Shown: positions 5,547-56,842, counted from the stretch's first letter. The stretch is DNA of 64,000 bases from an uncultured Actinomycetes bacterium (GCA_963841735.1 CAWJDT010000001.1:1708514-1772513); one strand, 5' to 3'. Translations and numbers: made by a program. The notes: generated by a model not told the origin, from the sequence alone.

Positions 5547-5553
5547 GAGGGCT

Positions 5554-6768: not shown

Positions 6769-6811
6769 GACCTTCCGCGGCCGGGTGGCAGCCCCCGATG
6801 GGGCCGGGCGG

Positions 6812-7799: not shown

Positions 7800-8684
7800 A
7801 TGGCTGATCTCGACAATGTCAAGGAATCCAAGAACTATTATCTCGATATCCCGCAGAAGAACCAGGCCTTCTTCGTGAAGGGCTCCGGTGCGCTTGACTG
7901 GGGCATGCAGAATCGTCTTGCCCGTATCTTTCGGCCCGAGTCGGGCCGCACAGTCATGCTGGCCGTGGATCACGGTTACTTCCAGGGTCCCACCTCCGGC
8001 TTGGAGCGGGTGGACGTCAACATCGTCCCGTTGGCTCCCTATGCCGACGCCCTCATGCTCACCCGGGGAATCCTGCGCAGCGTGGTGCCGCCCGCCTACA
8101 ACAAGGGCGTGGTGCTGCGTGCCAGCGGCGGGCCCAGCATCCTCAAGGAGCTCTCCAACGAGCAACTGGCCCTGGACATCGAAGACGCCCTGCGACTGAA
8201 CGCCGCGGCCATGGCGGTGCAGGTGTTCATCGGAGGCGAGTACGAGACTCAGTCCATTCACAACCTGACGCGGCTGGTGGACATGGGCAACCGGCACGGC
8301 ATGCCCGTGCTGGGAGTCACCGCTGTTGGCAAGAGTATGACCCGCGATGCCCGCTACTTCCGGCTGGCGTGCCGTATCGCCGCCGAACTGGGGGCGCATT
8401 TCGTCAAGACCTACTACGTGGACGAGGATTTCGAGACCATCACTTCCTCGTGCCCGGTGCCCATCGTCATGGCCGGGGGCAAGAAGCTCCCCGAACTCGA
8501 GGCTCTGACCATGGCCTACAAGGCGATCAGCGAAGGAGCCTCTGGGGTCGACATGGGCCGCAATATCTTCCAGTCGGAGGCTCCATTCGCCATGATACAG
8601 GCGGTAAGTAAGGTGGTGCACGAGTCCATGAAGCCCCAAGAAGCTTACGAGCTTTATTTGACCCTGAAGAGCGAGAAGAAGTAG
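7800..8684 (+). CDS. lsrF: LsrF-type class I aldolase-fold thiolase (3-hydroxy-5-phosphonooxypentane-2,4-dione thiolase)
   Basis: [56 protein letters not shown]. Confidence 0.9.
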
Positions 8685-8690
8685 ATCGGA

Positions 8691-9428
8691 GTGGAAGGCG
8701 GCCCGGTGAGCGGCGCACCAAGCACTACCCTCGCCAGGCTGCGGGCGCTCTGTCCCACGGTGAGCGTGGGGATCCTCAGCGCCGATCTCATGGACTTGGG
8801 CTCGGAGCTGGCGCTCTTGGAGCAGGCCGGGGTGGGGGTGGTGCACGTGGACGTGATGGACGGTTGCTTCTGTCCGCAACTTACCGTTGGAGCCGTCTAT
8901 GTGAAGGGGCTGCGCACTCCGCTGCTCAAGGACGTGCACCTCATGGTGCAGGAGCCGCTGGATTACCTTGCCGACTACGTGGCTGCCGGCGCCGATATAG
9001 TCACGGTGCACATTGAGGCGGCGGTGCATATCCATAGGGTGCTGCAGCGCCTCGGGGGCATGGAACACAGCGCCGGGCCCGGCCGGGGGATTGTTCGGGG
9101 GCTGGCGCTCAACCCAGGTACCCCGCTGGAATGGCTGACGCCGCCCCTGCTGGATGAGCTGGATATGATCTCGCTTCTGGGCATCGATCCGGGCTGGAGT
9201 GGGCAGAAGTTTGCTCCCCGCACGCTGGAGCGGGTAGCCCGGGTGAAGGAGATGGCGGAGGCCTCCGGCAAGGACATCCTGGTATGCGTTGACGGAGGCA
9301 TCACGCGTGACAACATCGCCGCGGTGGCGGCGGCCGGCGCCGATCTGGTCGCGGCCGGCAGCGCGGTCTTCGATGGCCAAGCGGCCGCTGCGAACGCCCA
9401 CTACGTGCTTGAGGCGGTGCGGGGCTGA
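8691..9428 (+). CDS. Ribulose-phosphate 3-epimerase family protein (LsrE-like)
   Basis: HVDVMDG.F.P.LT.G, DVHLMV, TVH.E, LNPGTP, VDGGI, AGSA.F. Confidence 0.85.
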   Translation: MEGGPVSGAPSTTLARLRALCPTVSVGILSADLMDLGSELALLEQAGVGVVHVDVMDGCFCPQLTVGAVYVKGLRTPLLKDVHLMVQEPLDYLADYVAAGADIVTVHIEAAVHIHRVLQRLGGMEHSAGPGRGIVRGLALNPGTPLEWLTPPLLDELDMISLLGIDPGWSGQKFAPRTLERVARVKEMAEASGKDILVCVDGGITRDNIAAVAAAGADLVAAGSAVFDGQAAAANAHYVLEAVRG

Positions 9429-11611: not shown

Positions 11612-11845
11612 ATGAACTCGGTCACTGAGGGCGGATCTCCCGTTCTGCTGGTCTCTGTCTGCTCGCCGCTGGAGGCAGATATCATCGTCAGTCGGCTGCG
11701 CAGCGCCGGCATCGAGACCTACGTGCGGCACGAGGCCTTGTCGGTTGTCTACGGCTTGACGGTGGACGGAGCCGGCCAGCAAGACATCATGGTTCGGCCG
11801 GAAGATCTAGGCGAAGCCCAGTTCGCGCTGGAGCAGACGCCTTGA
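11612..11845 (+). CDS. DUF2007 (putative signal-transducing) small protein
   Basis: EA.I...L...GI...V...V...D...A pattern, GGAGG RBS. Confidence 0.7.
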   Translation: MNSVTEGGSPVLLVSVCSPLEADIIVSRLRSAGIETYVRHEALSVVYGLTVDGAGQQDIMVRPEDLGEAQFALEQTP

Positions 11846-12834
11846 TCTCTGTGCTTGGCGTCGACATCGGGGGCACCAAGGTAGCCGTGGGGCCGGTGGA
11901 TCAGGCCGGAGTGCTCCTCGCTCCTCCGTTGGTGGAGCCTAGTTGTACGGAGAGTGGCGGTGTCTTCGTATCGGGCCTGGAAGCCACCCTCCGTCGGGCG
12001 CTCAGTGAGTTTGGGGACTTCAGCCCGGGAGTGATCGGCCTGGCCTGCGCGGGTACGGTGGACTTCGCGCGAGGGGTCATGGTCACCTCCCCCAATCTCC
12101 CCTTGGTCGAGGTTCCGCTGGCCGGACTCATACGGGATGCGCTGGGGCTGCCGGTGGTGCTGGACAACGACGCGCAGGCGGCAGTCCTGGCTGAGGCCGT
12201 CTGCGGCGCGGGGGCCGGTCTGCAGCACGTGGTGATGCTGACGCTGGGCACGGGGGTCGGTGGTGGTCTGTTCTTGGACGGGCATGTATACCGGGGTGCC
12301 GGGGGAGGGGCCGGGGAGTTAGGTCACATGGTGGTGCTGAAAGACGGTCTGCTCTGCGGCTGCGGCGGCCACGGCTGCCTGGAGATGTACGCGTCGGGAA
12401 GGGCGTTGAAACGCTACGCGGCCGCCCGGGCGGGTGACCGAGAGGCTGATCCCGAAGGGACCCTGCTCTCGCTACGCGAGCGGGGGGAGTTGGGCGGAGG
12501 AGCGGTCACGCGGTTGGCCCGGCAAGGGTATCCCGGCGCTCTGGCAGCAGTGCTGGAGTTTGCGGACTGGTTGGGGGTGGGGCTGGTGAGTGTCTGCAAC
12601 GTCTTCTCCCCGGAAATGATAGTAGTAGGCGGCGGGATAAGTGAGTTGGGAGGGCTGCTCCTTGAGCCCGCCACTGAGTACATGCGCCGGAATGCCATGG
12701 CCCCCGGATGCGAAACGGTTAGAGTCGCTCCCGCGGAACTCGGCAATCTGGCGGGGCTGGTGGGGGCGGGGCTGAGCGCATGGCGGGCTGTGAGCAGCGA
12801 AGCCGCCCAGGCGCCGTCTCCGGCCTGCGGCTGA
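11842..12834 (+). CDS. ROK family sugar kinase (glucokinase-like)
   Basis: GVDIGGTK, NDAQAA, LGTGVGGG, GELGH, CGCG..GCLE. Confidence 0.9.
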   Translation: MISVLGVDIGGTKVAVGPVDQAGVLLAPPLVEPSCTESGGVFVSGLEATLRRALSEFGDFSPGVIGLACAGTVDFARGVMVTSPNLPLVEVPLAGLIRDALGLPVVLDNDAQAAVLAEAVCGAGAGLQHVVMLTLGTGVGGGLFLDGHVYRGAGGGAGELGHMVVLKDGLLCGCGGHGCLEMYASGRALKRYAAARAGDREADPEGTLLSLRERGELGGGAVTRLARQGYPGALAAVLEFADWLGVGLVSVCNVFSPEMIVVGGGISELGGLLLEPATEYMRRNAMAPGCETVRVAPAELGNLAGLVGAGLSAWRAVSSEAAQAPSPACG

Positions 12835-12850
12835 TCCGCGGGTCATAGCC

Positions 12851-13735
12851 GTGCTCTATATCTGCCCCACACCAATAGGCAACCTGGGCGACGTTACTCT
12901 GCGGGTGCTGGAGATGTTGCGGACCGCCGACCTGGTGGCCTGCGAGGACACCCGGCACACCCGTGTCCTTCTGGATCGCCACGGCATCGCCGCCCGGCTG
13001 GTCAGCTTCCATGAGCATAATGAGGAGGCCCGCTTGGCCGGTCTTCTGCCACTCCTTCGGGAGGGCAAGTCGGTGGCGGTGGTTAGTGATGCGGGCATGC
13101 CCGGGCTGTCCGATCCCGGTTTCACATTGGTGCGGGCCTGCGCGGCCGAAGGACTCCCGGTGACGGTGTTGCCCGGCCCCTCGGCTGTGTCGACGGCCCT
13201 CGTGTTGTCGGGTCTGCCTACCGACCGCTTTGCCTTTGTCGGTTTCCTGGCGCGTGGCAAGGCCAAGTTGATAGAGCAGCTGGCCGGGTTCGACGGCTCT
13301 GGGGCTACGATGGTGGCCTTCGAATCTCCTCGCCGCATCCGCGCGTCCCTGGCAGCCATTGCTGTGCGTTGGCCCGAACGGCGCCTGGCGGTGTGCCGGG
13401 AGCTCACCAAGATCCACGAGGAGGCCGTGCGCGGTACTGCCGCCGAGATACTCGGGCAACTCATGGACCCTGTACGGGGAGAGGTGGTGCTGGTGCTGGA
13501 ACCGGGCGGCGGGCTTCAGACCGGAGTGGCTACCGGGGGCGGGGGCGGCGCGGGCCAGGTTTTCGGCGACGGGGAGGCTGTTCGGCGCGCTCTGACGGAA
13601 CTCCTGGACGCCGGCTTAGGAACCAAGAAGGCCGCCGGCATCGTGGCCGGTCTCACCGGGATGCCCAGAAAAGTTGCCTACGAGCTGGCCCTCGGCCTGG
13701 CGGACGCGGAGCCGGAGGCGCGACGGGTCGTATGA
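12851..13735 (+). CDS. rsmI: 16S rRNA (cytidine1402-2'-O)-methyltransferase
   Basis: PTPIGNL.D, CEDTR.T, SDAGMP.LSDPG, ESP.R, RELTK.HEE, RGE.V. Confidence 0.95.
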   Translation: MLYICPTPIGNLGDVTLRVLEMLRTADLVACEDTRHTRVLLDRHGIAARLVSFHEHNEEARLAGLLPLLREGKSVAVVSDAGMPGLSDPGFTLVRACAAEGLPVTVLPGPSAVSTALVLSGLPTDRFAFVGFLARGKAKLIEQLAGFDGSGATMVAFESPRRIRASLAAIAVRWPERRLAVCRELTKIHEEAVRGTAAEILGQLMDPVRGEVVLVLEPGGGLQTGVATGGGGGAGQVFGDGEAVRRALTELLDAGLGTKKAAGIVAGLTGMPRKVAYELALGLADAEPEARRVV

Positions 13736-13824
13736 CGCGGCGCCTGGCGCCCCGAGCGGTTGTCACCAGCCGCCGCAAGCGGCTGCCAATGGGGTTTGCC
13801 AGCGCTCCGATTGGGGCAAATGCC

Positions 13825-13854
13825 TTGACAGTGCGGCCATCCCAAGCCTATGGT
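13825..13854 (+). promoter_or_regulatory. Sigma-A-type promoter
   Basis: TTGACA-18bp-TATGGT upstream of the gene starting at 13910. Confidence 0.6.
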
Positions 13855-13909
13855 GGCAGCAGCAGACAGTACATTCCAGAGTGGGAACAGCGAACAACGG
13901 GAGGTGGGA

Positions 13910-14611
13910 ATGGGCTTCGATATGAAGCGCTTCAAGAAGTGGGACTTTGGGGTGTTCGGCGCGTTCTTGTTGACCATCGTCGGAGTGAGCATACCTTGGT
14001 GGCATCTCAAGGTGGGCGATTTGTTCGGCGGCCTCGGTAATCTGGGAGATTTGGCAGGGGTCGATGTGCCCGGCATCCCGGGATTCTCGGCCAACCTCAG
14101 TGGCTGGAGCGCTGGAGTCGTCGGCACGGGCAAGGCGGCCTTCTCCCTCATTCTGATCGCCTGCGTCTGGATCTTGGTCAAAGCTCTCTTCAAGAAAGGG
14201 GCCCCCGCTCCGTCCTGGTACAAGGAGAGCTGGGTCATCATGGGCTTTGGCGGCCTTCTGACCATCCTGGGCATCGTGGGCTGCGCGAAGGCCCCCTTCG
14301 GTGGGTTCGAAGCCTGGTCCTGGCGGCCTGGGTCGATCATCACCCTGATTGCCGCTGTTGCCATGCTAGCGTTCGGCTACTTCATGTTCACGGACAAGTC
14401 CGGGGACTATGACGGGTCCGGCAAGTTCGCCCTGCCGGCGATGGGTGGCCAGCCTCAGTCTCCCGGCGGCTATCAGCCTCCGGTCGGCTATCAGCCTCCG
14501 GCTGGCTACCAGCCGCCGGCACCGCCCGCGGGTGGCAAGTTCTGTTCCGGCTGCGGGGGCGCACTTGCTCCTGAAGACGTGGCCTGCAAGAGCTGCGGCA
14601 AGCCCGCCTAG
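13910..14611 (+). CDS. Multi-pass membrane protein with GYQPP repeats and a C-terminal zinc ribbon
   Basis: About 4 hydrophobic helices, 18-bp x3 repeat at 14468-14521, FCSGCG...CKSCG at the C-terminus, GGAGG RBS. Confidence 0.75.
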   Translation: MGFDMKRFKKWDFGVFGAFLLTIVGVSIPWWHLKVGDLFGGLGNLGDLAGVDVPGIPGFSANLSGWSAGVVGTGKAAFSLILIACVWILVKALFKKGAPAPSWYKESWVIMGFGGLLTILGIVGCAKAPFGGFEAWSWRPGSIITLIAAVAMLAFGYFMFTDKSGDYDGSGKFALPAMGGQPQSPGGYQPPVGYQPPAGYQPPAPPAGGKFCSGCGGALAPEDVACKSCGKPA

Positions 14612-44072: not shown

Positions 44073-45131
44073 CTAGAGAGTCCCCAGCATGAACTGAACT
44101 ATGAGCGACACTGCTGCGACCGCGAACCAACAGGCCAAACCCAGGATGATCGGTCGCAGTCCGTTTGCGATGAGCCGTCTGAGCTTCGTGTTGAGCCCGA
44201 TGGCCGCCATGGCAGTCACGATGCCGAATTTGCCCACATCGGAGAGGTGTGCGCTGACGCCGACGCTGATGATGCCCGAGGTGCACACCAGCGAGGCGGC
44301 AAGGAACCCGAGGACGAACCAGGGGAAGATCCTCTTGAGTGAGTAGCTTGATCGAACTCCCTCGGCGGCGGCCTCGCGCCGGCTCGCGCGCGCCATCCAA
44401 AACGCAAGTCCGAGCGTCACCGGAATGATCATGAGAGTGCGGGTGAGTTTCACGATGGTTGCAGACTGGCCGGCGGCGTCGGAAAACGCGAAGCCGGCGG
44501 CGACAACCGATGACGTGTCGTTGATGGCAGTCCCAGCCCACATCCCGAACCCTGCGTCTGTCATGCCGAGCAGATGTCCCAGGCTGGGGAACATGAAGAC
44601 GGCGAGGATGTTGAAGAGGAAGATCGTGGAGATGGAGCAACTGATCTCTTGACCGTCCGCGTCAATGACCGGCGCCGCCGCCGCGATAGCCGAGCCTCCG
44701 CAGATGGCAGTGCCCACGCCGATGAGAACCTTGGCGTTCCGGTTCACCCCGAGTGCTCGTCCTGCCAGGGCCGCGACGAGGAAGGCGGCTGCCAAGGTGA
44801 AGACCATCACCAGGAGCGACTGACTTCCCACCCGGAGCACCACGCCCAAATTGAGCGCGAAACCGAGGAACACGATCGAGTACTGAAGGACCTTCTTCCC
44901 ACAGAAGGCGATACCGCTGTCGAAGACCGCGGGGCGTTTCACAGACGCGACGACGATGCCGATTAGTATGGCGAAGACAGGACCTCCGACCACCGGGACC
45001 GCCCTGCCCGCGAACCAGGAGGGTATGGCTATGACCAGCGCGAGGCCAACGCCATAGAGCACAACGTAGACGGGCGGCTTCTTTGTCTCGGGGAAGGAGG
45101 CGGCCGGTCGTGGTGGTTCCGTAGAGGACAT
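44073..45131 (-). CDS. YeiH family (putative sulfate exporter) membrane protein
   Basis: GTAICGGSAIAA..P, FG.WAGTAIND.SSV.AA, VKLTR.L. Confidence 0.9.
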   Translation of the reverse strand: MSSTEPPRPAASFPETKKPPVYVVLYGVGLALVIAIPSWFAGRAVPVVGGPVFAILIGIVVASVKRPAVFDSGIAFCGKKVLQYSIVFLGFALNLGVVLRVGSQSLLVMVFTLAAAFLVAALAGRALGVNRNAKVLIGVGTAICGGSAIAAAAPVIDADGQEISCSISTIFLFNILAVFMFPSLGHLLGMTDAGFGMWAGTAINDTSSVVAAGFAFSDAAGQSATIVKLTRTLMIIPVTLGLAFWMARASRREAAAEGVRSSYSLKRIFPWFVLGFLAASLVCTSGIISVGVSAHLSDVGKFGIVTAMAAIGLNTKLRRLIANGLRPIILGLACWFAVAAVSLIVQFMLGTL

Positions 45132-46612: not shown

Positions 46613-47332
46613 TCAGTTCACACCGAAGGGCGGGTACTCGTCGCGCAGGCCGTACATGAAGGCGCTGACGCGCATGTTCCAGCGGTTCACGCGCACCAGA
46701 TAGTTGTGCATACGCGGCGGGAACTTGCCGGTGAACAGAACCGCCCATTGGCTCACATACCACACGCATGCCGCCCCGATCATCCTGAAGTACATCACGA
46801 AGATCACCGGGATAAGGGCAAAATACTTGATATACAGAAGGGTCATGATGGCCCAACCGCGTGAGCTCTTCTCCGGATAGGGCACCACCAGAGTAACCGC
46901 CGAGCGTTCGTTGTCGGCCGAGAAGGGCGGGAATTCGTCGCGCAGGCCCATTTCGAAGGCGGTGATGCGTGCCTGCCAGTACATCACTCTGACCATGAAC
47001 GCGTGCCATCCCCGCGGGAACCTGCCGGTAAAGAGCACGGCAAACTGACCGAGCACGAAGAGCACCCCGACACCGATCTGGTAGATGTACAAGACGATGA
47101 ACTGCACAAACAGCGTTATGAACTTGATGGGGATGATTGTGGAGAACAGCGCCCACATCCGCGAGCTCGTCTCCGGGCGCTCTATCTGCAGGTCGACCGG
47201 GTGGGTGTTGTACGCCGCGGAGGGCGGGGGAGTGTAGGCCGGGGGCGCCTCCTGAGCGGTCTGCTGCCCGCAACTGGCGCAGAACGTCTGACCTTCAACC
47301 AGTGTGTTGCCACATTTGCTGCAGAATGCCAT
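46613..47332 (-). CDS. Zinc-ribbon + tandem DUF4389 membrane protein
   Basis: FCSKCG...FCASCG, and twice SR...(W/F)AVLFTG.FP....(R/Y)W..R..A...GLRDE.PPF. Confidence 0.85.
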   Translation of the reverse strand: MAFCSKCGNTLVEGQTFCASCGQQTAQEAPPAYTPPPSAAYNTHPVDLQIERPETSSRMWALFSTIIPIKFITLFVQFIVLYIYQIGVGVLFVLGQFAVLFTGRFPRGWHAFMVRVMYWQARITAFEMGLRDEFPPFSADNERSAVTLVVPYPEKSSRGWAIMTLLYIKYFALIPVIFVMYFRMIGAACVWYVSQWAVLFTGKFPPRMHNYLVRVNRWNMRVSAFMYGLRDEYPPFGVN

Positions 47333-47548
47333 GCCGCTCTCCTTGCTAGGTGGTGGACTGCAAGAACTTGAGGTGCCTAGGAGCCGGGGCCTTTCCCAAG
47401 CGTTACCCGAGCGAATGCTATCACAACGCCTAAAATGGCCATTCACCTCCCATAGCGGGATCCGCGGCTGCGGCGCGTTGACTCAACCGATGCAGGTGAC
47501 CGGCGAGCTATTCCGTTCAGGTTTGGTTAAGGAAGGAAGCGGTATAGT

Positions 47549-47707
47549 AAAAACAGAGTCCTGAGAGTTCAGACGCGGCATCTGAGGAACTTACAAAGGG
47601 GCCCGCTGAGGAAATGCGGAGGCAAATGGCCGCAGAGTACAGCGAAGCGGGAACGAAGTAGGGGCTGATGAAGGATGCAAAGCGAGTTCACTCAGGGCTC
47701 TGTTTTT
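47549..47707 (+). ncRNA. Rod-like structured RNA candidate (6S-RNA-like) or palindromic MITE
   Basis: TATAGT -10 at 47543-47548, closing stem AAAAACAGAGTCCTGAG/CTCAGGGCTCTGTTTTT, nested stems separated by purine-rich internal loops, U-rich tail. Confidence 0.5.
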
Positions 47708-47771
47708 GTTTCTGCCGAGGTCTCGCCGCCGTTGGGCGCTGTCCGCTTCGACGTGTAATCTTCTGGGCGGC

Positions 47772-48218
47772 CTAGTTGCCCAGTCTCTCCCCGAACGTCC
47801 GTCCATAGTCGTGGCAGGCTCGCATGCCCTCGTCGGTGCCCACTCGGTCCTCCAAGAGATTGAACGAGCCAAGGTTGAAGGGCTCCATGCGGTAGACATG
47901 CTCCATGGTGTCGAAGATCATGGCCGGAGCATCACCGCTGTGGGTGTAGGAGCCAAAGGCCCCGCCTAGTTTGCCCTTCAGATCGGCCTGCTTTGCCATG
48001 AAGAGAAAGTTCTTCATAGGCCCGGCGATGTCTCGGTGATAGGTGGGTGACCCGAAGATGTACCCGTCATAGCCGGCCAGATCATCGAGCTCCTTGAGTT
48101 CCGAAACCTTCTTGGCGACAGCTTCGTGACCGGCGAAACGTACACCTTCGGCGATGTAGTCGGCCATCCGCTGAGTTTTTCCGGTCAACGAGACGTAGGC
48201 GACAAGGACCTTCTTCAC
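47772..48218 (-). CDS. Flavodoxin-domain protein
   Basis: Y.S.TG.T..MA FMN loop, GSPTY, AFGSY..SG.A. Confidence 0.88.
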   Translation of the reverse strand: MKKVLVAYVSLTGKTQRMADYIAEGVRFAGHEAVAKKVSELKELDDLAGYDGYIFGSPTYHRDIAGPMKNFLFMAKQADLKGKLGGAFGSYTHSGDAPAMIFDTMEHVYRMEPFNLGSFNLLEDRVGTDEGMRACHDYGRTFGERLGN

Positions 48219-48440
48219 TTCGCTCCTCCCTCGGGGCTGAGACTACGGTCGAGCGACACTGGAATACTCGAGCGCTGTCAGGTTCTCGTCCGCCATCGTG
48301 AATCCAACGACGATATTCATACCCGCTCCCGTCCGTTTCAACACGCTTTCTTGCGGGTAGCCACAAAGTATAGGCGTGCAGTATTGGGATCATCTACCTG
48401 GACTGCGCCATACGTGGTGGCGTTGAAGGAGGCCGGCAGA

Positions 48441-48662
48441 GTGGCAGAGATCAAACTGGATGTGCGCGGTGAGACCTGCCCCGTGCCCCTGGTGGAGGTG
48501 AGGAAGGCCCTCCGGCGGGCGGCCCCGGGTGACGTGGTCGAAGTGGTGGGCACGCATCCATCGTCTAAGAAGGAGATCCCGCTGGCGGTGAAGGCTCTCA
48601 AGCTAGAGCTTCTTAGCACTGAGGAGGAAGGTGCCACGTGGAAGATCAGGATTCAGCGGTGA
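48441..48662 (+). CDS. TusA/SirA family sulfur carrier
   Basis: AGGAGG RBS, LDVRGETCPVP (CPxP motif), 73 aa. Confidence 0.9.
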   Translation: MAEIKLDVRGETCPVPLVEVRKALRRAAPGDVVEVVGTHPSSKKEIPLAVKALKLELLSTEEEGATWKIRIQR

Positions 48663-49093
48663 CGGAGGAGACGGCGGTCGAGAAGGCTACGTTTGTTGTC
48701 CACAGCGGCGACTACGACAAGATCTACAGCGCCTTCATCATGGGCAACGGCTTCCTCGCCATGGGCATGGAAGTGTCGATGTACTTCACATTCTGGGGAT
48801 TGTTGCGACTGAAGAATGGTCAGCTGGACTCGGGCGAGCTGTCTAGGATGCACATGCTGGGATTGGGCAAGTGGATGGTCACACGGCGGATGAAGAAGAG
48901 CGGAGTGGCTTCGCTCGAGCGCCTGGCCCAAGATTTCAAGGAGTTGGGCGGAAAGATCTTCGCGTGCGACATGACCATGGACATCATGGGGGTCCGGCCG
49001 GAGGATCTGCGCCAGGATCTGATAACTGAGTACTGCGCGGTGGGGACCTACGTAGAAGAGGCCCGCCACTCCGCCGTCACGCTTTTCATTTAG
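48659..49093 (+). CDS. DsrE/DsrF/DrsH-like sulfur-transfer protein (DsrE2/YrkE type)
   Basis: SGDYDK, A.AMG.EV.(M/L)YFTFWGL..L, ACDMTMD.MG. GTGA overlap with the tusA stop. Confidence 0.88.
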   Translation: MTEETAVEKATFVVHSGDYDKIYSAFIMGNGFLAMGMEVSMYFTFWGLLRLKNGQLDSGELSRMHMLGLGKWMVTRRMKKSGVASLERLAQDFKELGGKIFACDMTMDIMGVRPEDLRQDLITEYCAVGTYVEEARHSAVTLFI

Positions 49094-49101
49094 GAGGCGG
49101 C

Positions 49102-50271
49102 ATGTTCGCGGAGACCGTATATCTCGACAACTCGGCCGCTACCCGACTTGACGAGCGCGTGCTCGAGGCCATGAAGCCGTTCTTCTTCGAGAAATTCGCG
49201 GTGGCCACTTCAGAGTTCGGATACTCGTTGGGCATCGAGTCCAAGGAGGCTCTCGATGAGGCCCGGGCTTCGCTCGCGCACAGATTGGGAGCGCAGTCCG
49301 AAGAGTTCGTGTTCACTTCGGGCAGCACCGAGTCCAGCAACATGGCCCTCAAGGGAGTGGCTCTGGCTCTGGGGGAGAAGAAGGGCCGGCACTTGGTGAC
49401 GTCGCGCATCGAGGACTTTCAGGTCTTAAATACCGGGGCGGCGCTTGGCAGAGCAGGCTTTCAAGTGACCTTGTTGGACGTCGATGGCGATGGACTGGTG
49501 GACCCGGCGGCGGTGGACAAAGCCATCACGCCCGAGACGATCCTGGTGTCGGTACAGCATGCCAATCAGGAGATTGGGACGATCCAGGATATCGAGAGCA
49601 TCGCGAATATCTGCCGTGCCAAAGGGGTCTTGTTCCATACCGACGCTACCCATAGCTTCGCGCGGCTGCCTCTCGACGTGAATCGCATCCCGGTCGACCT
49701 CGTGACGGTGGCCGGGCACACCATACACGGGCCGAAAGGGACGGGAGGCCTGTATGTGCGCTCCGGGACTCCCCTGGGCAAGTGGATGGACGGAGGGTTC
49801 CAGGAGTCCAACCGCCGGGCCGGAGTGGAGGATATCGCAGGGGCGGTGGGTTTCGCCACCGCCGCCGAATTGATCACAGAAGAAGAGAACCAGAGACTGC
49901 GCGAGCTCCGCGACCGGCTGCTTGGGCGTGCCTTGAGCGAGATCCCGTACACCGTTCTAAATGGGCACCCAACCAGGCGCCTGCCGCAGAATGCCAATAT
50001 CACGTTCCACTATGTCGAGGGGGAGTCGATCACTCTACAGCTCGACATGCGAGGCTTTGCCGTGAGCACCGGTTCTGCCTGCTTCAGCAAGTCGCTTGAG
50101 GCCAGCCACGTGATCATGGGCATCGGCGGGGATCACGAACGGGCACACGGGTCTGTTCGTTTCAGCTTGAGTCGCTACAACAATGAAGCCGACGTGGACG
50201 GGGTGATAGACGCTATCGCCGAAGTGGTGGCCGAGTTACGCGCCATCAGTCCGCTTACGCCCAAGGACTAA
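49102..50271 (+). CDS. IscS/NifS-like cysteine desulfurase homolog with a degenerate PLP site
   Basis: YLDN.A.T, FTSG.TES.N, H.DAT, GPKG, STGSAC, GSVRFS are present, but GHT replaces GHK and EDF replaces EH. Confidence 0.9.
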   Translation: MFAETVYLDNSAATRLDERVLEAMKPFFFEKFAVATSEFGYSLGIESKEALDEARASLAHRLGAQSEEFVFTSGSTESSNMALKGVALALGEKKGRHLVTSRIEDFQVLNTGAALGRAGFQVTLLDVDGDGLVDPAAVDKAITPETILVSVQHANQEIGTIQDIESIANICRAKGVLFHTDATHSFARLPLDVNRIPVDLVTVAGHTIHGPKGTGGLYVRSGTPLGKWMDGGFQESNRRAGVEDIAGAVGFATAAELITEEENQRLRELRDRLLGRALSEIPYTVLNGHPTRRLPQNANITFHYVEGESITLQLDMRGFAVSTGSACFSKSLEASHVIMGIGGDHERAHGSVRFSLSRYNNEADVDGVIDAIAEVVAELRAISPLTPKD

Positions 50272-50285
50272 GGAGGCAAACAAGG

Positions 50286-50921
50286 ATGGCATTCCCCTAC
50301 AACGACAAGGTGCTGGAGCATTTCCGTCACCCCCAGAACGTCGGCAAGATAGAGGACGCCGACGGGGTCTCCACAGAAGGCAGCCCGGCCTGTGGGGACA
50401 TGGTCTCGCTATCCATAAAGGTGAATCCAGAGACAAAGGTGCTCGAGGACGTCAAGTTCGAGTCGTATGGATGCGCGTCGAACATCGCCACCGGTTCTAT
50501 CATCACCGAGTTGGCCAGGGGCAAGACCATCTCGGAGGCGAAGAAGATCAGCTGGAAACAGGCGTCAGAAGAGCTGGGCGGGCTTCCGGCGATCAAGGCG
50601 CATTGCTCGGTGCTGGCCGTCGAGGGTCTGCGTGCTGCAATACGTGACTACGAAGAGAAGAACGGCCTGGTCGAGGAGCGCGAACCTACCACTGAGGCTG
50701 TGGTCAAACGTCGCCTTCGGCACGTGATGAACCCGCTGAAAGGTCTTGACGTAGTGCGCACGGATTTGATCAAAGAGATCGAGGTCAAGGACGGCGTGGT
50801 GCGGGTAGTGGCCGACCTGGCCCCGGACCACCAGTTCGCGGCTGTGATCAAGGCGGACATCGCCGAGAAGATCCAGCCTCTCTGGGACGTGAACGAGGTG
50901 GTCATCAAGTTCGTGGGATGA
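50286..50921 (+). CDS. IscU/NifU Fe-S scaffold fused to a C-terminal DUF59-like domain
   Basis: HF..P.N.G, G.PACGD, GCAS, LP..K.HCS.LA. C-term L..V.NP..G.DVV...LI..I.V.DG.V.V. Confidence 0.88.
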   Translation: MAFPYNDKVLEHFRHPQNVGKIEDADGVSTEGSPACGDMVSLSIKVNPETKVLEDVKFESYGCASNIATGSIITELARGKTISEAKKISWKQASEELGGLPAIKAHCSVLAVEGLRAAIRDYEEKNGLVEEREPTTEAVVKRRLRHVMNPLKGLDVVRTDLIKEIEVKDGVVRVVADLAPDHQFAAVIKADIAEKIQPLWDVNEVVIKFVG

Positions 50922-51086
50922 GAGATGCCGAGGGCCACTTCTCCACCGAGGGGCGTCCGAGTCGACCGTGCTGAGTCTGGCGACATCCTGGTGACGGACT
51001 GTTCTGGCTGCGCTATCGCCCGGTTGGGTTATGATTCCAGTCATGTCGACCTCTAGCTCATCATCTAGCGGCCTGTCTGGGGCAGA

Positions 51087-52061
51087 GTGAACGGGATGGT
51101 GGCCGTCTGGGTGATCGTCTTCGTCGTGTCCCTCGCCGCTCTGGTCAAGTCGGCCGATTGGTTTACCGAGGGCGCGGAGGAACTCGGCGTATTTCTGGGC
51201 ATGCCCACGTACGTGGTCGGTCTTACGATCGTCGCCATGGGCACATCCTTACCCGAATTGGTGAGTTCCATCTTCGCAGTCGCTCAGGGTTCTCCCGAGA
51301 TCGTGGCCGGCAACGCGGTCGGTTCCAACATGACGAATATCTGCTTGGTTTTGGCCGTCGGGGCGATCATCGGCGGACGCTTGTTCGTGGCTCGCGAGAT
51401 CGTGAAGATCGATCTACCTATGCTCGCGAGTTCGACCGCGCTCCTGGGCCTGGCCGCTTTGGATGGAACGATCAGCCGAGGCGATGGAGTTCTCCTTGTC
51501 GTGGGGGCGGTCATCTATGGGTTCTATGGCCTGCGAATATCTCGGCCCACCAGGGTCACCCAGGCCACGGTGGAAGCAGCCATCCAAGAAGATCTCAAGC
51601 CGGCGCGCGATCGCTTGCGTCCGCTAGTGGTGGTCAGGCTCGCGGGTGGAGCCGCCATGCTCTACTTTGCCGCTCGGTATACCATCAGGTCGGTGATCGA
51701 ACTATCCACCATCTTCAATATTGGTGCCGATGTGATTGCCATATCGGCGGTCGCGTTGGGGACTTCCCTTCCTGAGTTGGTGGTGAGCGTGGTCGCCGCC
51801 CGCCGCGGCAAGCTCGAGATAGCTATGGCCAACGTGCTTGGTTCCAACATATTCAACGCCTTCGCTGTCGTCGGCATCCCTGCCCTCATAACACCTCTCC
51901 CAGTGACGGGGCCTGTGCTTACGATCGGTCTTCCGTTCATGGCCGTGGCTACGATCCTCTACTTCTTCATGGCGCAAGACCGCGAAGTCACGCGCTGGGA
52001 AGGCATGCCGCTCATCCTGCTCTACATTCTCTTCCTGGGCACGCTATTCGGGCTGTTCTAG
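51087..52061 (+). CDS. Calcium/sodium antiporter (YrbG-like)
   Basis: Two alpha repeats GTSLPEL and GN.VGSN / NVLGSNIFN. Confidence 0.92.
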   Translation: MNGMVAVWVIVFVVSLAALVKSADWFTEGAEELGVFLGMPTYVVGLTIVAMGTSLPELVSSIFAVAQGSPEIVAGNAVGSNMTNICLVLAVGAIIGGRLFVAREIVKIDLPMLASSTALLGLAALDGTISRGDGVLLVVGAVIYGFYGLRISRPTRVTQATVEAAIQEDLKPARDRLRPLVVVRLAGGAAMLYFAARYTIRSVIELSTIFNIGADVIAISAVALGTSLPELVVSVVAARRGKLEIAMANVLGSNIFNAFAVVGIPALITPLPVTGPVLTIGLPFMAVATILYFFMAQDREVTRWEGMPLILLYILFLGTLFGLF

Positions 52062-52255: not shown

Positions 52256-55200
52256 GTGTCTCGCCCGGAAAGGCGGGCTGACGCTTTGCTCAAGCGCTGG
52301 GTTTGTTCCAGGACTCGCCTCGCCATGCTGCTTGTTGGCCTCGGGGGCACGATAGTCGTCATTCTCGCTGTCGTCGTCATCGGTCGTTTGGTGTTCCTTG
52401 ACCGCTACCAGACCCTAGAGCAACAGACGGTTCAGGAGAAGATGGAGCGGACCGTCCGCGCGCTGGCCCTCAACACCGAGAATCTCGAGCGAGTAGCCGT
52501 GGACTGGGCTGTGTGGAACGCGCCCTACGACTTCATGGAGACCGGCGACCAGGCGTTTGTGAGCGACAACCTGGCCGGGGATGCTCTCGTCAACATAGAT
52601 GTCGATGCCATGGCGTTCCTGGATAACCAGGGAGAGGTGAGGCTGCTGGCTACCGCCGACCGGCGTTTTGCCTACGGTGCCGATGCCGGCCCTGGGCTGT
52701 CCGCATTGGCTCAGGCCACCGGGTCTGAGTTGGTGGTGGCGGCTCGGGCCGGCCCGGTGTCCGGGGTGGTCGGTTCGCCCAGCGGGCCTCAGCTCATCGC
52801 GATTCACGCCATCGTGCCTTCCGATGGCTTGGGCGAGGCCCGCGGGGTGCTGGTGGTCACGAAAGCACTTGACAGAGAGGCGCTGGATTCGATGTCGGCG
52901 CTCACCGGGACCAAGGTGGATGCCTACGCCGCCGGAGACCCGGGATTGTCCGCCGAACAGCCTTGGCTGGCGGCTGAACTCGGTTGGGAGCAAGTCACGC
53001 TGGTCCGCCCGCTGGGCGGAGATCACGTGGCCGGATTCGTGGGGTTCCGAGACATCTTCGGCCGGCCGGCGCTGGTGCTTGAGGCCCAAGAGGATCGTCC
53101 GGAGTATCGGGAAGCTGTCAGAGCGGTTTGGCTCTTCGGCGTGGCGCTGGTGGCACTCTGGCTGGTGGCCGCGGGGGTGGCGTACGTACTGGTCAGGCGG
53201 TTGGCCGCCTCCCGGGGCAAGCTGGAGGCAAGCGAGCGCCTGCACCGGACCGTGCGTGGGCAGTCTAGTGAGGGCCTGATACTCGCGGACCGCGGATCGG
53301 GGACCATAGTGGAGGCCAACCAGGCCTTCGCCGAGCTGTCGGGCTACGCCCCCTCGGAGATGGTAGGCCTCACGCTCGCCGCGGTCCTCGGTGATGCCGA
53401 GGTGCTGGTTGCCGGTGCCGAGCAACGGGAAGGTGGGCTCTCGTCCGCGAACCGTCACAGGCGCCTCCGGCGCAAAGATGGTGCCGAGGTGGAGGTGGAA
53501 TTGACCGTCAGTGTCATCCAGCAGACTTCGAACGAAGTGCTCTCCCTGGTTGTTCGGGACATCACCGAGAGCAGGCAGGCGGAGGAGAATCTGGCACGCG
53601 TCAGCCGGCACAATGAACTCATCCTGGGCTCAGTGGCTGAAGGGATATTGGGGTTGGACAGGCAGGGTAATCATACTTTCGTCAACCCACGTGCGGCAAC
53701 AATGCTTGGCTACGAAGTCGAAGAGCTGATCGGCAGTCCCAGCCACAGCCTCTGGCACCATACCAAACCTGACGGAAGCCCGTATCCCATTGAAGAGTGC
53801 GAGATCTACGCCTCCGTTCGGGAGGGGAAAGTACGCAGGGTATCCACCGAAGTTTTTTGGCGGAAGGATGGCACCAGCTTCCCTGTCGAATACGCCAGCA
53901 CGCCTATCAAAGGACGGGGTCGCTTGGTGGGCACCGTGGTGACCTTCTTGGATATCACCGAGCGCAGGGAGGCGGAGCAGGCGCTGATCGAGAGCGAAGG
54001 CCGCTACCAAACCCTGGTGAATCTCAGTCCCGACGCCATGATCGTCAATTACCACGGCAAATATGTCTTCGCCAATCAGGCCGCCGCCAGACTGTTCGGG
54101 GCGGACTCGCCAAGAGAGCTACTCGGCCAAGAGGGACTTGAACGCGTCCACCCCGATGATCGCGAGTTGATAGCCCAAAGGGCCACTGAGATCATGGCCG
54201 GAGCCGAGTTTGCGCCCACGGAGATCAGGCTTCTGCGCCTGGACGGTAGTCCTGTGACGGTCGAGACCAGCTCCGCGAGCATAGAGTTCGACGGCGGTCC
54301 GGCCAGGCAGGTGGTCTTTCGTGACATCTCCGAGCGCGTGCGCATGGAGAAGACTCTGCGCATCATCCAGTACTCGGTGGATCACGCTGCCGACAACATC
54401 TTCTGGCTCGACCGGCAGGGCAATATCACCTACGCGAGCAAGTCTACCTGCGAGCGGCTCGGCTACTCGCTCGAGGAGATGCTCGACCTGACCATATACG
54501 ACATCGACCCGGCGGCGCCTACGCCGTGGCACGAGCACTGGCAACAAGTGAGAGCGCAGGGGAGTCGGATTTTCGAGGCCATTCACCGCGCCAAGGACGG
54601 CACACTCGTGCCGGTGGAGGTGAGCACCAACCTGGTGATCTACGAAGGCGACGAGTACCACTTCTCGTATGCGCGCGACATCACCGAGCGCAAGCAGACA
54701 GAGGAGGCCTTGCGGAGGGCGGCGGAGCGGACCGAGGTGGCCAATCGCGAGCTTGAGCACGCGGTCGGCCGCGCCAACCAATTGGCCGCGGAAGCTCAGG
54801 CTGCCAGCGCCGCCAAGGGTGAGTTCGTCGCCAACATGAGTCACGAGATCCGAACTCCCATCAATGGGGTGATCGGCATGACCAGCCTGCTTCTCGACAC
54901 GGACTTAAACCCTCTCCAGATGGACTACGCGGAGACGGTGCGGGTGAGTGCCGAGTCGCTGCTTACCATCGTGAACGACATACTCGACTTCTCCAAAATC
55001 GAGGCCGGCAAACTGGAGATGGAGGATCTGGCCTTTGATCTTCGCAATACCCTCGAGGAAATGGGCGACCTGCTGGCCATGAATGCCCACGAAAAGGGCC
55101 TGGAGTTCACCACTCTGATCGAGCCCGAAGTGCCTTCGCGCCTGTGTGGCGACCCGGGGCGCCTGCGCCAGGTGCTGACCAACCTGGTGGGGAATGCCGT

Positions 55201-56842
55201 GAAGTTCACCGCGCAGGGCGAAGTAGCCGTGGCGGTGTCCGTGGACTCAGAGGACGACAAGACGGCGACGCTACGCTTTGCCGTGCGCGACACGGGCATC
55301 GGTATCCCGGGGGACAAGCTGGAGGGTCTCTTCCAACCCTTCACCCAGGCGGACTCCTCTACCACGAGACGCTTTGGGGGCACAGGACTGGGGCTTTCGA
55401 TTTCGAAGAGTCTGGTGGAGCTCTTCCATGGCCAAATAGGGGCAACGAGCACCCCCGGCGAGGGTTCGACTTTCTGGTTCACCGCCCGCTTTGAAAAACA
55501 GGCCGAGGTCGCTGGCGAGGTCGCTGGCGATCCCGAAGCGGCTTCCAAGGAGCCTGGTTTTGCGAGCGTGGAGGGCAGTCGCATCTTGGCCGTGGATGAC
55601 AACGCGACCAACCGCAAGGTGGTTGCGGGCATGCTCAGTGCTTGGGGAGCTCGTCACATGGAGGTGGAGGGCGCCAGCCGGGTGCTTGAGCTCTTGCGGA
55701 GCGCGGCGCGCGAAGGAGATCCTTACCGCATCGTCGTCTTGGACATGCAGATGCCGGACGTGGATGGGGAGACGCTCGGAAAGATGATCAGAGAGGACCA
55801 CACACTGGATGGGTGTTCTCTCGTCATGATGACCTCGATGGGCGGCAGAGGAGACGCGGGTCGCCTGGAGAAAGCCGGTTTTTCCGCTTACCTGACGAAA
55901 CCGGTGAAGCAATCGCAGCTGCACGACTGCCTGGTGACGGTTCTAAATCGCGGGCTGATTTCCGAAACGCCCGCGGCTGCTCGCATAGTCACTCGGCACA
56001 GCCTGACCGATCAGGCCAAGAGTCGCGTACGGGTGCTGCTCGCGGAGGACAACCCCATAAATCGTAAGGTCGCTCTCGCTATGTTGGAGAAGCTTGGGTA
56101 TCGGGCCGATGCGGTTGTCAATGGTCTTGAGGCGCTGTCCGCTCTGGGTTCGCGGTCATACGATCTTGTGCTGATGGATGTCCAGATGCCGGAGATGGAT
56201 GGTCTTGAGGCCACCGGCCAAGTGCGCGATCCGAGTTCTGCCGTCCGGAATCACGATATTCCTATCGTCGCGCTTACCGCGGCGGCCATGAAGGGAGACC
56301 GTGAGAAGTGCATGGCTGCCGGAATGACCGACTACCTCACGAAACCTCTGCGCCCCGAGGAACTTGGGCGCGTGATCGAGCGTTGGACCGCGGGAGCTGA
56401 GGGAAGGCGGTCGGTGGCGCCTGGGCCGGCGGCGCCCCTGTCGCGAGCGGTTTCCGCGGCGCCGCGGGAGGCGGCCCAAAAGGGCTCAGTTCCGGTGTTC
56501 GACCGCGGGGCTCTTCTGAGCACTCTTGGAGGTGACAGAGGGTTGGCCCAAGAGATCATGGTGGAATTCCTCGCCGATGTTCGGCGGCAACTTGACGCAT
56601 TTCGTGTGACCGCCGAGTCAGGCCCCGCGGCGCAACTTGCGCGCCAGGCACACTCGCTCAAAGGGGCAGCGGGAACGGTAGGCGCCCTCGCGCTGAGAGC
56701 AGAGGCCGATCGACTGGAGACTGATGCCCGACAGGCAGGCGAAGGACAACTCGAGCGTGGTGAGGGGAGAGTCGCCGCGCTTGAGGTTGCCTTCGAGGAG
56801 TTCGCGGACGTCTGGGAACGGGACGGATTGGGGGAGGCGTAG
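52256..56842 (+). CDS. Hybrid sensor kinase: CHASE4, 4x PAS, HisKA/HATPase, 2x REC, Hpt
   Basis: DWA.W...Y (CHASE4), PAS/PAC motifs, MSHEIRTP, N/G1/F/G2 boxes, two D.QMP receivers, AHSLKG. Start codon uncertain. Confidence 0.92.
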   Translation: MSRPERRADALLKRWVCSRTRLAMLLVGLGGTIVVILAVVVIGRLVFLDRYQTLEQQTVQEKMERTVRALALNTENLERVAVDWAVWNAPYDFMETGDQAFVSDNLAGDALVNIDVDAMAFLDNQGEVRLLATADRRFAYGADAGPGLSALAQATGSELVVAARAGPVSGVVGSPSGPQLIAIHAIVPSDGLGEARGVLVVTKALDREALDSMSALTGTKVDAYAAGDPGLSAEQPWLAAELGWEQVTLVRPLGGDHVAGFVGFRDIFGRPALVLEAQEDRPEYREAVRAVWLFGVALVALWLVAAGVAYVLVRRLAASRGKLEASERLHRTVRGQSSEGLILADRGSGTIVEANQAFAELSGYAPSEMVGLTLAAVLGDAEVLVAGAEQREGGLSSANRHRRLRRKDGAEVEVELTVSVIQQTSNEVLSLVVRDITESRQAEENLARVSRHNELILGSVAEGILGLDRQGNHTFVNPRAATMLGYEVEELIGSPSHSLWHHTKPDGSPYPIEECEIYASVREGKVRRVSTEVFWRKDGTSFPVEYASTPIKGRGRLVGTVVTFLDITERREAEQALIESEGRYQTLVNLSPDAMIVNYHGKYVFANQAAARLFGADSPRELLGQEGLERVHPDDRELIAQRATEIMAGAEFAPTEIRLLRLDGSPVTVETSSASIEFDGGPARQVVFRDISERVRMEKTLRIIQYSVDHAADNIFWLDRQGNITYASKSTCERLGYSLEEMLDLTIYDIDPAAPTPWHEHWQQVRAQGSRIFEAIHRAKDGTLVPVEVSTNLVIYEGDEYHFSYARDITERKQTEEALRRAAERTEVANRELEHAVGRANQLAAEAQAASAAKGEFVANMSHEIRTPINGVIGMTSLLLDTDLNPLQMDYAETVRVSAESLLTIVNDILDFSKIEAGKLEMEDLAFDLRNTLEEMGDLLAMNAHEKGLEFTTLIEPEVPSRLCGDPGRLRQVLTNLVGNAVKFTAQGEVAVAVSVDSEDDKTATLRFAVRDTGIGIPGDKLEGLFQPFTQADSSTTRRFGGTGLGLSISKSLVELFHGQIGATSTPGEGSTFWFTARFEKQAEVAGEVAGDPEAASKEPGFASVEGSRILAVDDNATNRKVVAGMLSAWGARHMEVEGASRVLELLRSAAREGDPYRIVVLDMQMPDVDGETLGKMIREDHTLDGCSLVMMTSMGGRGDAGRLEKAGFSAYLTKPVKQSQLHDCLVTVLNRGLISETPAAARIVTRHSLTDQAKSRVRVLLAEDNPINRKVALAMLEKLGYRADAVVNGLEALSALGSRSYDLVLMDVQMPEMDGLEATGQVRDPSSAVRNHDIPIVALTAAAMKGDREKCMAAGMTDYLTKPLRPEELGRVIERWTAGAEGRRSVAPGPAAPLSRAVSAAPREAAQKGSVPVFDRGALLSTLGGDRGLAQEIMVEFLADVRRQLDAFRVTAESGPAAQLARQAHSLKGAAGTVGALALRAEADRLETDARQAGEGQLERGEGRVAALEVAFEEFADVWERDGLGEA

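Follow-up and report, generated by a model that had tools for sequence, protein, structure and literature searches.

A stretch of 64,000 nucleotides from an uncultured Actinomycetes bacterium (GCA_963841735.1 CAWJDT010000001.1:1708514-1772513; hereafter the window) carries a cassette of four genes, tusA, dsrE, an iscS homologue without the Schiff-base Lys and an iscU with a DUF59 tail. The cassette is real, conserved and under selection, and the changes in the cofactor pocket of its IscS homologue (hereafter cassette IscS, a name also used for its close relatives in other genomes) are shared within the family and are not private decay. It is a widespread, uncharacterised variant of the minimal IscS-IscU system for the assembly of iron-sulfur (Fe-S) clusters. 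How could an IscS without its catalytic Lys serve an Fe-S scaffold? In the reading that we prefer, with a probability of about one half, the cassette is a self-contained Fe-S assembly module of strict anaerobes that has given up the desulfurase half-reaction and would receive its sulfur from the DsrE-like protein and TusA via the loop Cys of cassette IscS.

The tusA-dsrE-iscS-iscU cassette

The window corresponds to C1:1708514-1772513 of a genome of 2.82 Mb (8 contigs, 89.7% complete) and contains the following genes at the locus:

47772-48218, minus strand: short-chain flavodoxin, open reading frame (ORF) divergent from the cassette (Pfam Flavodoxin_1 and Flavodoxin_5)
48441-48662, plus strand: tusA, sulfur-carrier protein of 73 residues with Cys13 in C-P-V-P (Pfam TusA)
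48638-49093, plus strand: dsrE, DsrE2-like protein of the DrsE_2 family, 151 residues, Cys110 (Pfam PF13686)
49102-50271, plus strand: cassette IscS, Lys-less IscS/NifS-like protein of 389 residues with loop Cys327 (Pfam Aminotran_5)
50286-50921, plus strand: iscU-DUF59, 211 residues, scaffold domain at 5-126 and DUF59/SufT-like domain at 138-205 (Pfam NifU_N and FeS_assembly_P)

A preliminary description of this DNA had seen four tightly coupled genes next to a divergent flavodoxin, and ORFs and Pfam domains agree with it: tusA and dsrE overlap by 25 nt, dsrE and iscS are separated by 8 nt, and iscS and iscU by 14 nt. The longest ORF holding the TusA domain spans 48126-48662. The downstream start GTG 48441 was preferred and tusA placed at 48441-48662, because this GTG sits 8 nt past GAAGGAGG (48425-48432) and because TusA homologues start with M-A-E-I-K, matching the N-terminus read from it.

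A rebuilt pocket in a desulfurase fold

Aligned by BLASTP with IscS of Escherichia coli K-12, cassette IscS has T207 in place of K206, the Lys that forms the Schiff base with pyridoxal phosphate (PLP), and D105, Q156, H184 and V242 in place of H104, N155, Q183 and T243. Where E. coli IscS has its GNPSS loop, AVATSEF stands with an insertion of one residue. The codon of Thr207 is ACC at 49720 and thus two changes away from AAA or AAG. Retained are the Cys of the mobile loop (C328 as C327, in the motif S-T-G-S-A-C) as well as D180, H205 and R354 (as D181, H206 and R353). The five substitutions including the codon, the disappearance of the GNP.S motif and the persistence of the loop Cys had all been listed in the preliminary description, and each of them holds in the alignment.

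As a whole the protein belongs to the class-V aminotransferase fold of the IscS/NifS type (Pfam PF00266, Aminotran_5, 218.4 bits) and scores below the NCBIfam equivalog cut-offs of TIGR03402 for NifS (435.7 versus 530.75), of TIGR02006 for IscS (352.8 versus 643.2) and of NF010611 (368.9 versus 548). An AlphaFold2 model (pTM 0.79, mean pLDDT 74.6) has the type-I desulfurase fold, and Foldseek searches with this model yield TM scores of ~0.8 to NFS1 and to IscS of Archaeoglobus fulgidus and of E. coli. Among solved structures, IscS2 of A. fulgidus (4eb5/4hvk, E 4e-96) is the closest; T207 corresponds to its D199. Judged from its sequence, cassette IscS is predicted to be no longer able to form the PLP Schiff base. 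It is assigned to the clade of IscS1/IscU1 of Methanosarcina acetivorans, is predicted not to be an active desulfurase and is not strictly of the A. fulgidus type.

Conservation and spread

Decay would make the substitutions unique to this genome, which they are not. The 120 homologues of cassette IscS that scored best among 7,999 candidates (72-100% identity) were taken, the nearest named ones bearing MAG labels of Actinobacteria/Thermoleophilia, and E38, D105, Q152, Q156, D181, H184, H209 and C327 are each found in 120 of 120. The column of the missing Lys holds Thr in 107, Ala in 8 and Val in 5 of these proteins and Lys in none, and 155 of the 389 columns are at least 98% conserved. In a comparison of the 120 homologues with 130 Lys-bearing cluster representatives, eight positions (V34, E38, F39, L90, D105, Q152, Q156 and H184) are fixed in the clade and fixed otherwise in the canonical proteins, and all of them except L90 fall within PLP-pocket motifs. 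Ratios of nonsynonymous to synonymous substitution (dN/dS; Nei-Gojobori method, window versus the related loci L038 and L039) amount to 0.05-0.12 for tusA, dsrE, iscS and iscU and to 0.05-0.09 for iscS, rough values because synonymous sites are near saturation, indicating purifying selection. At one close relative (L042, 6001-7166) the match to cassette IscS, of 85% identity, is split in two with the joint at 6162, which suggests a frameshift or an assembly error of the metagenome-assembled genome (MAG).

A scan of one genome per species with an alignment of 18 sequences matched at least 599 stretches, of which at least 495 loci were confirmed. Gene neighbourhoods were counted at the best 80 of these at least 495 loci (65-85% identity). 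The counts rest on tblastn with the window's proteins because the ORF caller used for neighbours is crude, missing many small genes and calling antisense ORFs in GC-rich DNA. D105, Q156, H184 and C327 are present at all 80 loci, and the Lys column holds Thr in 77, Ser in 1 and Leu in 2. Beside iscS, tusA is found at 75, dsrE at 77, iscU at 78 and the DUF59 tail at 74 loci; tusA, dsrE and iscU occur together at 75, so that the linkage of the carriers in the window is a conserved one. The gene order is tusA-dsrE-iscS-iscU in 68 cases and iscS-iscU-tusA-dsrE in 7 (Anaerolineae and Thermoflexales). Two of the exceptions (L050 and L081) are truncated by contig ends; the other three are taken up below, where the proposed mode of action is weighed. 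Clustering of the ORFs of 81 neighbourhoods revealed no general partner beyond the four cassette genes.

As labelled in their records, the bacterial hosts comprise Actinomycetota, Dehalococcoidia and Anaerolineae (Chloroflexota), Syntrophales and other Deltaproteobacteria, Clostridia, Nitrospiraceae and a MAG labelled Thermotogae, and the archaeal hosts Methanosarcina, Methanothrix, Methanocrinis, Methanolobus, Methanomassiliicoccaceae, Methanofastidiosum and MAGs labelled Thermococci and Halobacteria.

Loss of the Lys and linkage to sulfur carriers

Is the loss of the Schiff-base Lys associated with the presence of the carriers? The co-occurrence, which the preliminary description had suggested for scrutiny, was counted in three samples, in all of which the flanks were 1.5 kb and the loci are the best matches to a chosen query. 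Among the 30 best loci that cassette IscS finds in 401 genomes of the window's phylum, Lys-less proteins are encoded in the window itself, in a genome of the same family (G399) that has the whole cassette with 74% identity, and in G392, where N-Q replaces H-K and dsrE and tusA follow. No match to tusA or dsrE lies within 1.5 kb of any of 28 Lys-bearing loci (27 from this sample and the canonical NifS of the window's own genome). When the G392 protein is the query in a phylum sample of equal size (401 genomes), the 30 best loci are all Lys-less (H-K replaced by N-Q, H-Q, D-L, Y-Q or Q-Q) and are accompanied by tusA in 29, dsrE in 25 and iscU in 26 cases; many of these genomes also carry a Lys-bearing copy that appears in the first sample. 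The third sample consists of 201 genomes from the phylum of a Methanothrix host, searched with an A. fulgidus-type protein (P0135, 431 bits to 4eb5). Here 14 of 18 Lys-less loci (S-S-N-D type) and none of 7 Lys-bearing ones have tusA as a neighbour, and DsrE-family genes are found at 10 or more of the 18 (9 by Pfam on 26 of 60 small ORFs and one by a weak tblastn match). Taken together, 44 of 49 Lys-less IscS loci and none of the 35 Lys-bearing ones have tusA within 1.5 kb, and DsrE-family genes accompany the Lys-less sets at 1/1, 25/30 and at least 10/18 loci. None of the counted loci stems from a genome flagged as unpublished; such genomes are part of the total of 401 in the first sample and presumably also in the second.

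On phylogenetic trees (FastTree with 160 rows, IQ-TREE with 63 rows) the Lys-less label needs 5 changes. The Lys-less rows fall into the cassette IscS clade (support 99), an A. fulgidus-type clade, an N-Q/D-L clade and some single rows, and a single clade for all 28 Lys-less rows is rejected by the approximately unbiased (AU) test (p-AU 0.0004; the groups for the AU tests were named after the first tree had been seen). The link to the carriers has survived divergence to ~40-47% identity and at least three gene orders.

TusA, the DsrE-like protein and the scaffold

In the structure of the IscS-TusA complex from E. coli, W45, E49, D52 and R55 on the IscS side contact R27 and R31 on TusA, and changes of W45, E49 or D52 abolish TusA binding (PMC2854127). 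At the corresponding positions of the BLASTP alignment cassette IscS has Y41, E49, D52 and R55. Both E49 and R55 are found in 120 of 120 members of the clade, and Glu stands at position 49 in just 31 of the 130 Lys-bearing representatives; D52 and R55 are little informative because they are common everywhere. On the partner's side, R21 and R25 of the window's TusA align with R27 and R31 of E. coli TusA, and in 34 cassette TusAs R21 is invariant and R25 at least 90% conserved. These docking residues would fit an E. coli-like binding of TusA to cassette IscS, for which they are modest evidence.

With a Pfam score of 76.6 bits for PF01206 (cut-off 28.6) and a score of 37.9 for the NCBIfam TusA equivalog (cut-off 78), the tusA product is a member of the TusA family and not the orthologue of the E. 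coli protein, the equivalog score being under the cut-off. The Cys of its C-P-V-P motif is conserved at 74 of 74 related loci. The top NCBIfam name for this protein is YedF, at 42.5 bits against a cut-off of 79, and nothing else indicates selenium, so that a selenium role was rejected. The DsrE-like protein reaches 110.5 bits for PF13686 (DrsE_2, cut-off 25), and is not filed as DsrE2 proper because it scores only 59.6 for the DsrE2 equivalog NF047629 (cut-off 210). Its Cys110 (A-C-D-M, within a pattern A-C-x-M-T-M) is conserved in 77 of 77, and Cys133 is variable (Cys in 45, Gly in 32); the nearest solved chains are 2qs7 and 3pnx.

In the scaffold protein, NifU_N (PF01592, 146.8 bits) is joined to FeS_assembly_P/DUF59 (PF01883, 43.2 bits), and the score for TIGR01999 is 122, below the cut-off of 192.4. 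The residues C36, D38, C63, H106 and C107 are present, the three ligand Cys being conserved at 75/75, 75/75 and 73/73 related loci, and among solved structures the protein comes closest to 9wfy_D, 4eb5_C (A. fulgidus) and 2z7e. The residues that the preliminary description had named in the partner proteins, that is the three Cys and the Asp/His of IscU and the Cys of the TusA C-P-V-P and DsrE A-C-D-M motifs, are thus all in place, and their Cys are kept across the related loci.

A possible mode of action

How would sulfur reach the scaffold? We propose that sulfane sulfur, carried as protein persulfide or thiosulfonate, would be passed from Cys110 of the DsrE-like protein to the Cys of TusA, from there to Cys327 of cassette IscS and finally to the cysteines of IscU. 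Cassette IscS, which has preserved its dimeric fold of type I, the loop of Cys327 and the helix for TusA docking, would act as docking and hand-over platform and possibly also as cluster ligand, as in A. fulgidus. Reduction of the sulfur and its combination with iron would take place on IscU, and transfer of the cluster would be assisted by the DUF59 tail. The reductant might be the flavodoxin in this organism and a glutaredoxin together with a protein resembling ferredoxin-thioredoxin reductase (FTR) elsewhere.

Several points weigh against this proposal. We infer the flow of sulfur from the carriers to the scaffold, the environmental source of DsrE's sulfur, the reductant and the Fe-S product, and sequence does not fix the direction. 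A platform role alone leaves the invariance of E38, D105, Q152, Q156, H184 and H209 unexplained, and the model of cassette IscS is unreliable (pLDDT <50) at 33-39, 229-241 and 308-352, that is where the loops of the pocket and of Cys327 lie. Nor are the carriers strictly indispensable, as L041 and L056 contain cassette IscS alone and L089 contains IscS-IscU-DUF59 without tusA and dsrE. In the genomes of the first two (G606 and G607) the IscU-DUF59 orthologue is found on a different contig, again without carriers, the only DsrE relative found has 40-42% identity, and in the genome of the third (G608) no DsrE relative was found, the completeness of all three genomes being unknown. Related genomes are not independent samples, and the association with the carriers may be one old inherited event, descending from a single ancient TusA/DsrE-linked Lys-less IscS-IscU unit: neither the joining of the cassette IscS and N-Q clades (p 0.077) nor that of the three TusA-linked Lys-less clades (p-AU 0.068) is rejected by the AU test. 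For this reason convergence is not claimed. From M. acetivorans it was reported that recombinant IscS1 is insoluble and that only IscS2/IscU2 are consistently found in proteomes (PMC7585200).

The desulfurases of the hosts also have to be counted here. At C1:636.8-638.0 kb, with an iscU behind it, the genome of the window has the gene of a NifS that retains the Lys and all PLP motifs, and SufB/D was not found in this genome of 89.7% completeness, which is the outcome of a check for another intact desulfurase or Suf system that had been advised in the preliminary description. By its gene content the organism is predicted not to depend on the cassette for a desulfurase, and since the Lys-bearing NifS is present, cysteine could remain the ultimate sulfur source (e.g., from NifS to TusA); the earlier label of a cysteine-independent system is not supported. 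Lys-bearing copies are likewise present in three of five other hosts (G402, G403 and G405). In the remaining two, G401 (Methanofastidiosum) and G404, cassette IscS is the sole IscS/NifS/SufS-like gene found, and both have a SufB-like gene.

Alternatively, the IscS-IscU pair could be a scaffold of the A. fulgidus type that works on free sulfide, cassette IscS only lending its Cys327 as ligand and TusA and DsrE serving to buffer, detoxify or regulate. The closest solved relative is the inactive IscS2-IscU pair of A. fulgidus, for which sulfide was proposed as the sulfur source (PMC8918507), and the minimal ISC system (MIS) and the SMS system are said to be able to use sulfide (PMC13066941); moreover, the hosts are, to judge from their record labels, anaerobes of sulfidic or methanogenic settings and 3 of the 80 loci have neither tusA nor dsrE. 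However, both carrier genes stay with iscS at 75 of 80 loci despite changes in gene order, purifying selection acts on them as strongly as on the scaffold, adjacency to tusA is seen for Lys-less IscS only, and the TusA contact residues are retained on both partners, and we regard this explanation as rather unlikely. Another alternative takes the rebuilt pocket for a new site for iron, another metal or a small molecule, which would be delivered or sensed via the Cys327 loop while the carriers bring sulfur. In its favor, the invariant polar gains E38, D105, Q152, Q156, H184 and H209 are located beside the retained D181, H206 and R353. In the Lys-less proteins of the A. fulgidus type most PLP contacts are still there and pyridoxamine phosphate (PMP) is bound (PMC8918507), so that the wholesale change of the pocket in cassette IscS is a separate step. 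The proposed site is, on the other hand, read from the types of residues, matches no known metal-site motif and lies in loops modelled with low confidence, and we consider it improbable. Equally doubtful to us is its extended version, in which a pocket formed by E38, D105, Q152, Q156, D181, H184, H206 and H209 near the Cys327 loop would hold iron, another metal or a ligand. With sulfur brought by DsrE and TusA, iron by cassette IscS, and the cluster built and passed on by IscU-DUF59, the four proteins would then constitute a complete Fe-S synthase that operates without cysteine desulfuration and without a frataxin-like iron donor.

The 2-thiouridine relay of E. coli begins with IscS, TusA and a DsrE-family protein, and it could be imagined that sulfur runs in this usual direction also in the cassette. 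NifS would load the sulfur, cassette IscS as adaptor would pass it to TusA and on to the DsrE-like protein for thiolation, and IscU-DUF59 would be a second acceptor or a sensor. The Lys-bearing IscS/NifS found in this genome and in 3 of 5 other hosts would suit such a relay. We nevertheless hold it to be improbable: no gene of the TusE, MnmA, ThiI or MoaD type recurs beside the cassette at the 80 loci clustered, apart from the carriers the only partner kept invariably is a DUF59-tailed Fe-S scaffold, and G401 and G404 show no Lys-bearing desulfurase that could load the relay. That cassette IscS is a pseudo-enzyme in decay, the remnant of a duplicated iscSU pair and devoid of a function of its own, would go together with the inconsistent detection of IscS1/IscU1 in M. 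acetivorans proteomes (PMC7585200), but is hardly credible in view of intact reading frames, the low dN/dS of iscS, the share of nearly invariant columns (155 of 389) and the occurrence at 495 or more loci across two domains.

Neighbouring genes and other Fe-S genes of the host genomes

The flavodoxin had been given the part of reductant in the preliminary description, and its membership in the system is not supported. At a threshold of 45% identity it is found at none of the 80 loci, the only other match being one of 34% in L051, and it was not found in the same-family genome G399, which has the cassette. Flavodoxins 39-45% identical to that of the window lie 3' of iscU in two tusA-dsrE-iscS-iscU loci of the A. 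fulgidus type (L171, 85-519, minus strand; L172, 2762-3190, plus strand), so the linkage is rare and not unique to the window. The flavodoxin is a possible local reductant and not a conserved member of the cassette. In Anaerolineae (L041, L056, L109 and L115) a glutaredoxin and a fusion of an FTR catalytic-like with a rubredoxin-like domain follow cassette IscS or the cassette; they are candidates for a disulfide or persulfide reductase in place of the flavodoxin.

Other neighbours recur in subsets of the loci. In ~10 loci, mostly of Dehalococcoidales, the cassette is followed on the same strand by the gene of a P1B-type ATPase that has one YHS and two HMA domains. This ATPase, often preceded by a small SHOCT-domain membrane protein, hints at a link to the handling of copper or other heavy metals:

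P1B-type ATPase downstream of the cassette: L068, L069, L073, L076, L093, L096, L102, L111, L116
P1B-type ATPase upstream of the cassette: L059

Three loci of Dehalococcoidia (L058, L063 and L065) have one or two genes of the Asp/Glu-racemase family between cassette IscS and IscU-DUF59.

Within the window, a zinc-ribbon and DUF4389 membrane protein is encoded just past the flavodoxin (46613-47446, minus strand), and a PF03601 (Cons_hypoth698) membrane protein 3 kb upstream (44073-45131, minus strand), of a family that is often annotated as putative sulfate exporter of the YeiH type. On the other side of the cassette (52256-56842, plus strand) lies the gene of a hybrid sensor kinase of 1,528 residues with CHASE4, several PAS, HisKA, HATPase, two receiver and Hpt domains; PAS kinases, a very common family, are close to the cassette in 17 of the 81 clustered neighbourhoods. 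Scans for promoters, terminators and inverted repeats over 47400-51300 and the spacer between flavodoxin and tusA gave nothing above shuffled sequences and no inverted repeat, and Rfam and tRNA scans found three tRNAs only, all distant from the cassette.

Elsewhere in the genome, the canonical iscU that follows nifS (~2675-3060 of L001, which is C1:635318-639403) is split over two frames, which change at a G homopolymer at ~2895-2903, and the third ligand Cys lies past the frame break. With 8 contigs, an assembly error at the homopolymer is as likely as a real break; if the break is real, the cassette's IscU-DUF59 and one other IscU-like gene would be the only intact U-type scaffolds. That other gene belongs to a second sulfur/Fe-S island (L123, C1:1139000-1156000), which contains TusA (4769-5041), MvhD/FlpD (5059-5493), two HdrA/NfnB-like flavoproteins (5490-10093) and a full-length DrsE_2 protein (11624-12106), and on the opposite strand the IscU-like protein (12759-13364), an NTPase of the Mrp/NUBPL type (13130-14035) and MinD-like proteins that contain ferredoxin domains. 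The genome therefore has two places, the cassette and this island, where TusA and DsrE are found together with an Fe-S scaffold.

Relation to known systems and significance

Which of the described systems comes closest? The IscS1 of M. acetivorans (MA0808) is without the Lys and without PLP-binding residues, the IscU1 of this species (MA0807) has a mass of 24.2 kDa, the isc1 genes have neighbours of unknown function, and IscS1 was suggested to act perhaps like IscS of A. fulgidus (Deere et al., 2020; PMC7585200). The cassette resembles isc1 in belonging to the same clade, in the identical S-T-G-S-A-C-F-S loop, in the Lys-less IscS and in the enlarged IscU (211 residues in the window). Methanosarcina loci (L070, L090, L091, L095 and L113) have the complete tusA-dsrE-iscS-iscU-DUF59 arrangement, with an IscS 68-70% identical to that of the window; they differ in the archaeal host and in the HIT and DUF5518 genes alongside, whereas the window has a bacterial host and a divergent flavodoxin there. 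The words TusA and DsrE do not occur in the main text of PMC7585200. No paper characterising the cassette was found in searches of full-text literature, the scope of which did not include subscription journals. The preliminary description's remark that this is not a described system therefore stands as regards characterisation and fails as regards the genes, since IscS1/IscU1 with neighbours of unknown function have been in print since 2020 (PMC7585200).

The A. fulgidus IscS2-IscU pair (4eb5, 4eb7 and 4hvk; D199K variant 4r5f) likewise has lost the Schiff-base Lys, kept the loop Cys and placed IscS beside IscU. This IscS is described as having no desulfurase activity and as providing its Cys as a ligand of a [2Fe-2S] cluster (PMC8918507). 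Its relatives in the archaeal sample lie beside tusA at 14 of 18 and beside DsrE-family genes at no fewer than 10 of 18 loci. H104, N155, the GNPSS loop and T243 are all still present in the A. fulgidus type, which also binds PMP, whereas cassette IscS has other invariant residues in place of all of these. The IscU of the A. fulgidus type is without the DUF59 tail, and on the trees this type forms a separate clade. The E. coli IscS-TusA-TusBCD system (3lvj; PMC2854127) shares the three protein families, and the residues of the TusA-binding helix and the arginines of TusA are conserved between the two. There, however, an active, PLP-dependent IscS supplies the sulfur, which ends up in 2-thiouridine of tRNA, whereas the IscS of the cassette is Lys-less, no TusE or MnmA is linked to it, and the acceptor linked to it is an Fe-S scaffold.

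MIS consists of a desulfurase and a scaffold (PMC12192291, PMC13066941). Like the cassette it is an IscS-IscU pair of anaerobes without chaperones, ferredoxin and A-type carriers, and in the available texts of both papers DsrE is absent and no Lys-less form with carriers is mentioned. The canonical nifS-iscU pair of this genome (L001) fits MIS better than the cassette does. In the rhd-tusA-dsrE2 and DsrE3A-TusA modules of sulfur oxidisers, the proteins have one reactive Cys each, pass on sulfane sulfur or thiosulfate and feed Dsr or Hdr-like oxidation. These modules are not known to serve an IscS-IscU pair, and the window's DsrE-like protein is far below the DsrE2 equivalog cut-off.

For the Lys-less IscS-IscU pair of A. 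fulgidus the sulfur source has been called an open question (PMC8918507), to which the cassette with its two dedicated carriers offers a concrete and testable answer. Its distribution over at least 495 loci includes methanogens, Dehalococcoidia, Anaerolineae and Syntrophales, and methane production and organohalide respiration use enzymes very rich in Fe-S clusters. The window contributes one more member of this family, whose local interest lies in the divergently transcribed flavodoxin and in a canonical iscU that appears to be broken. If sulfur indeed enters by TusA and DsrE, a distinct route of sulfur entry would be added to the five described schemes of Fe-S biogenesis (PMC13066941), and a desulfurase fold would have been turned into an adaptor.

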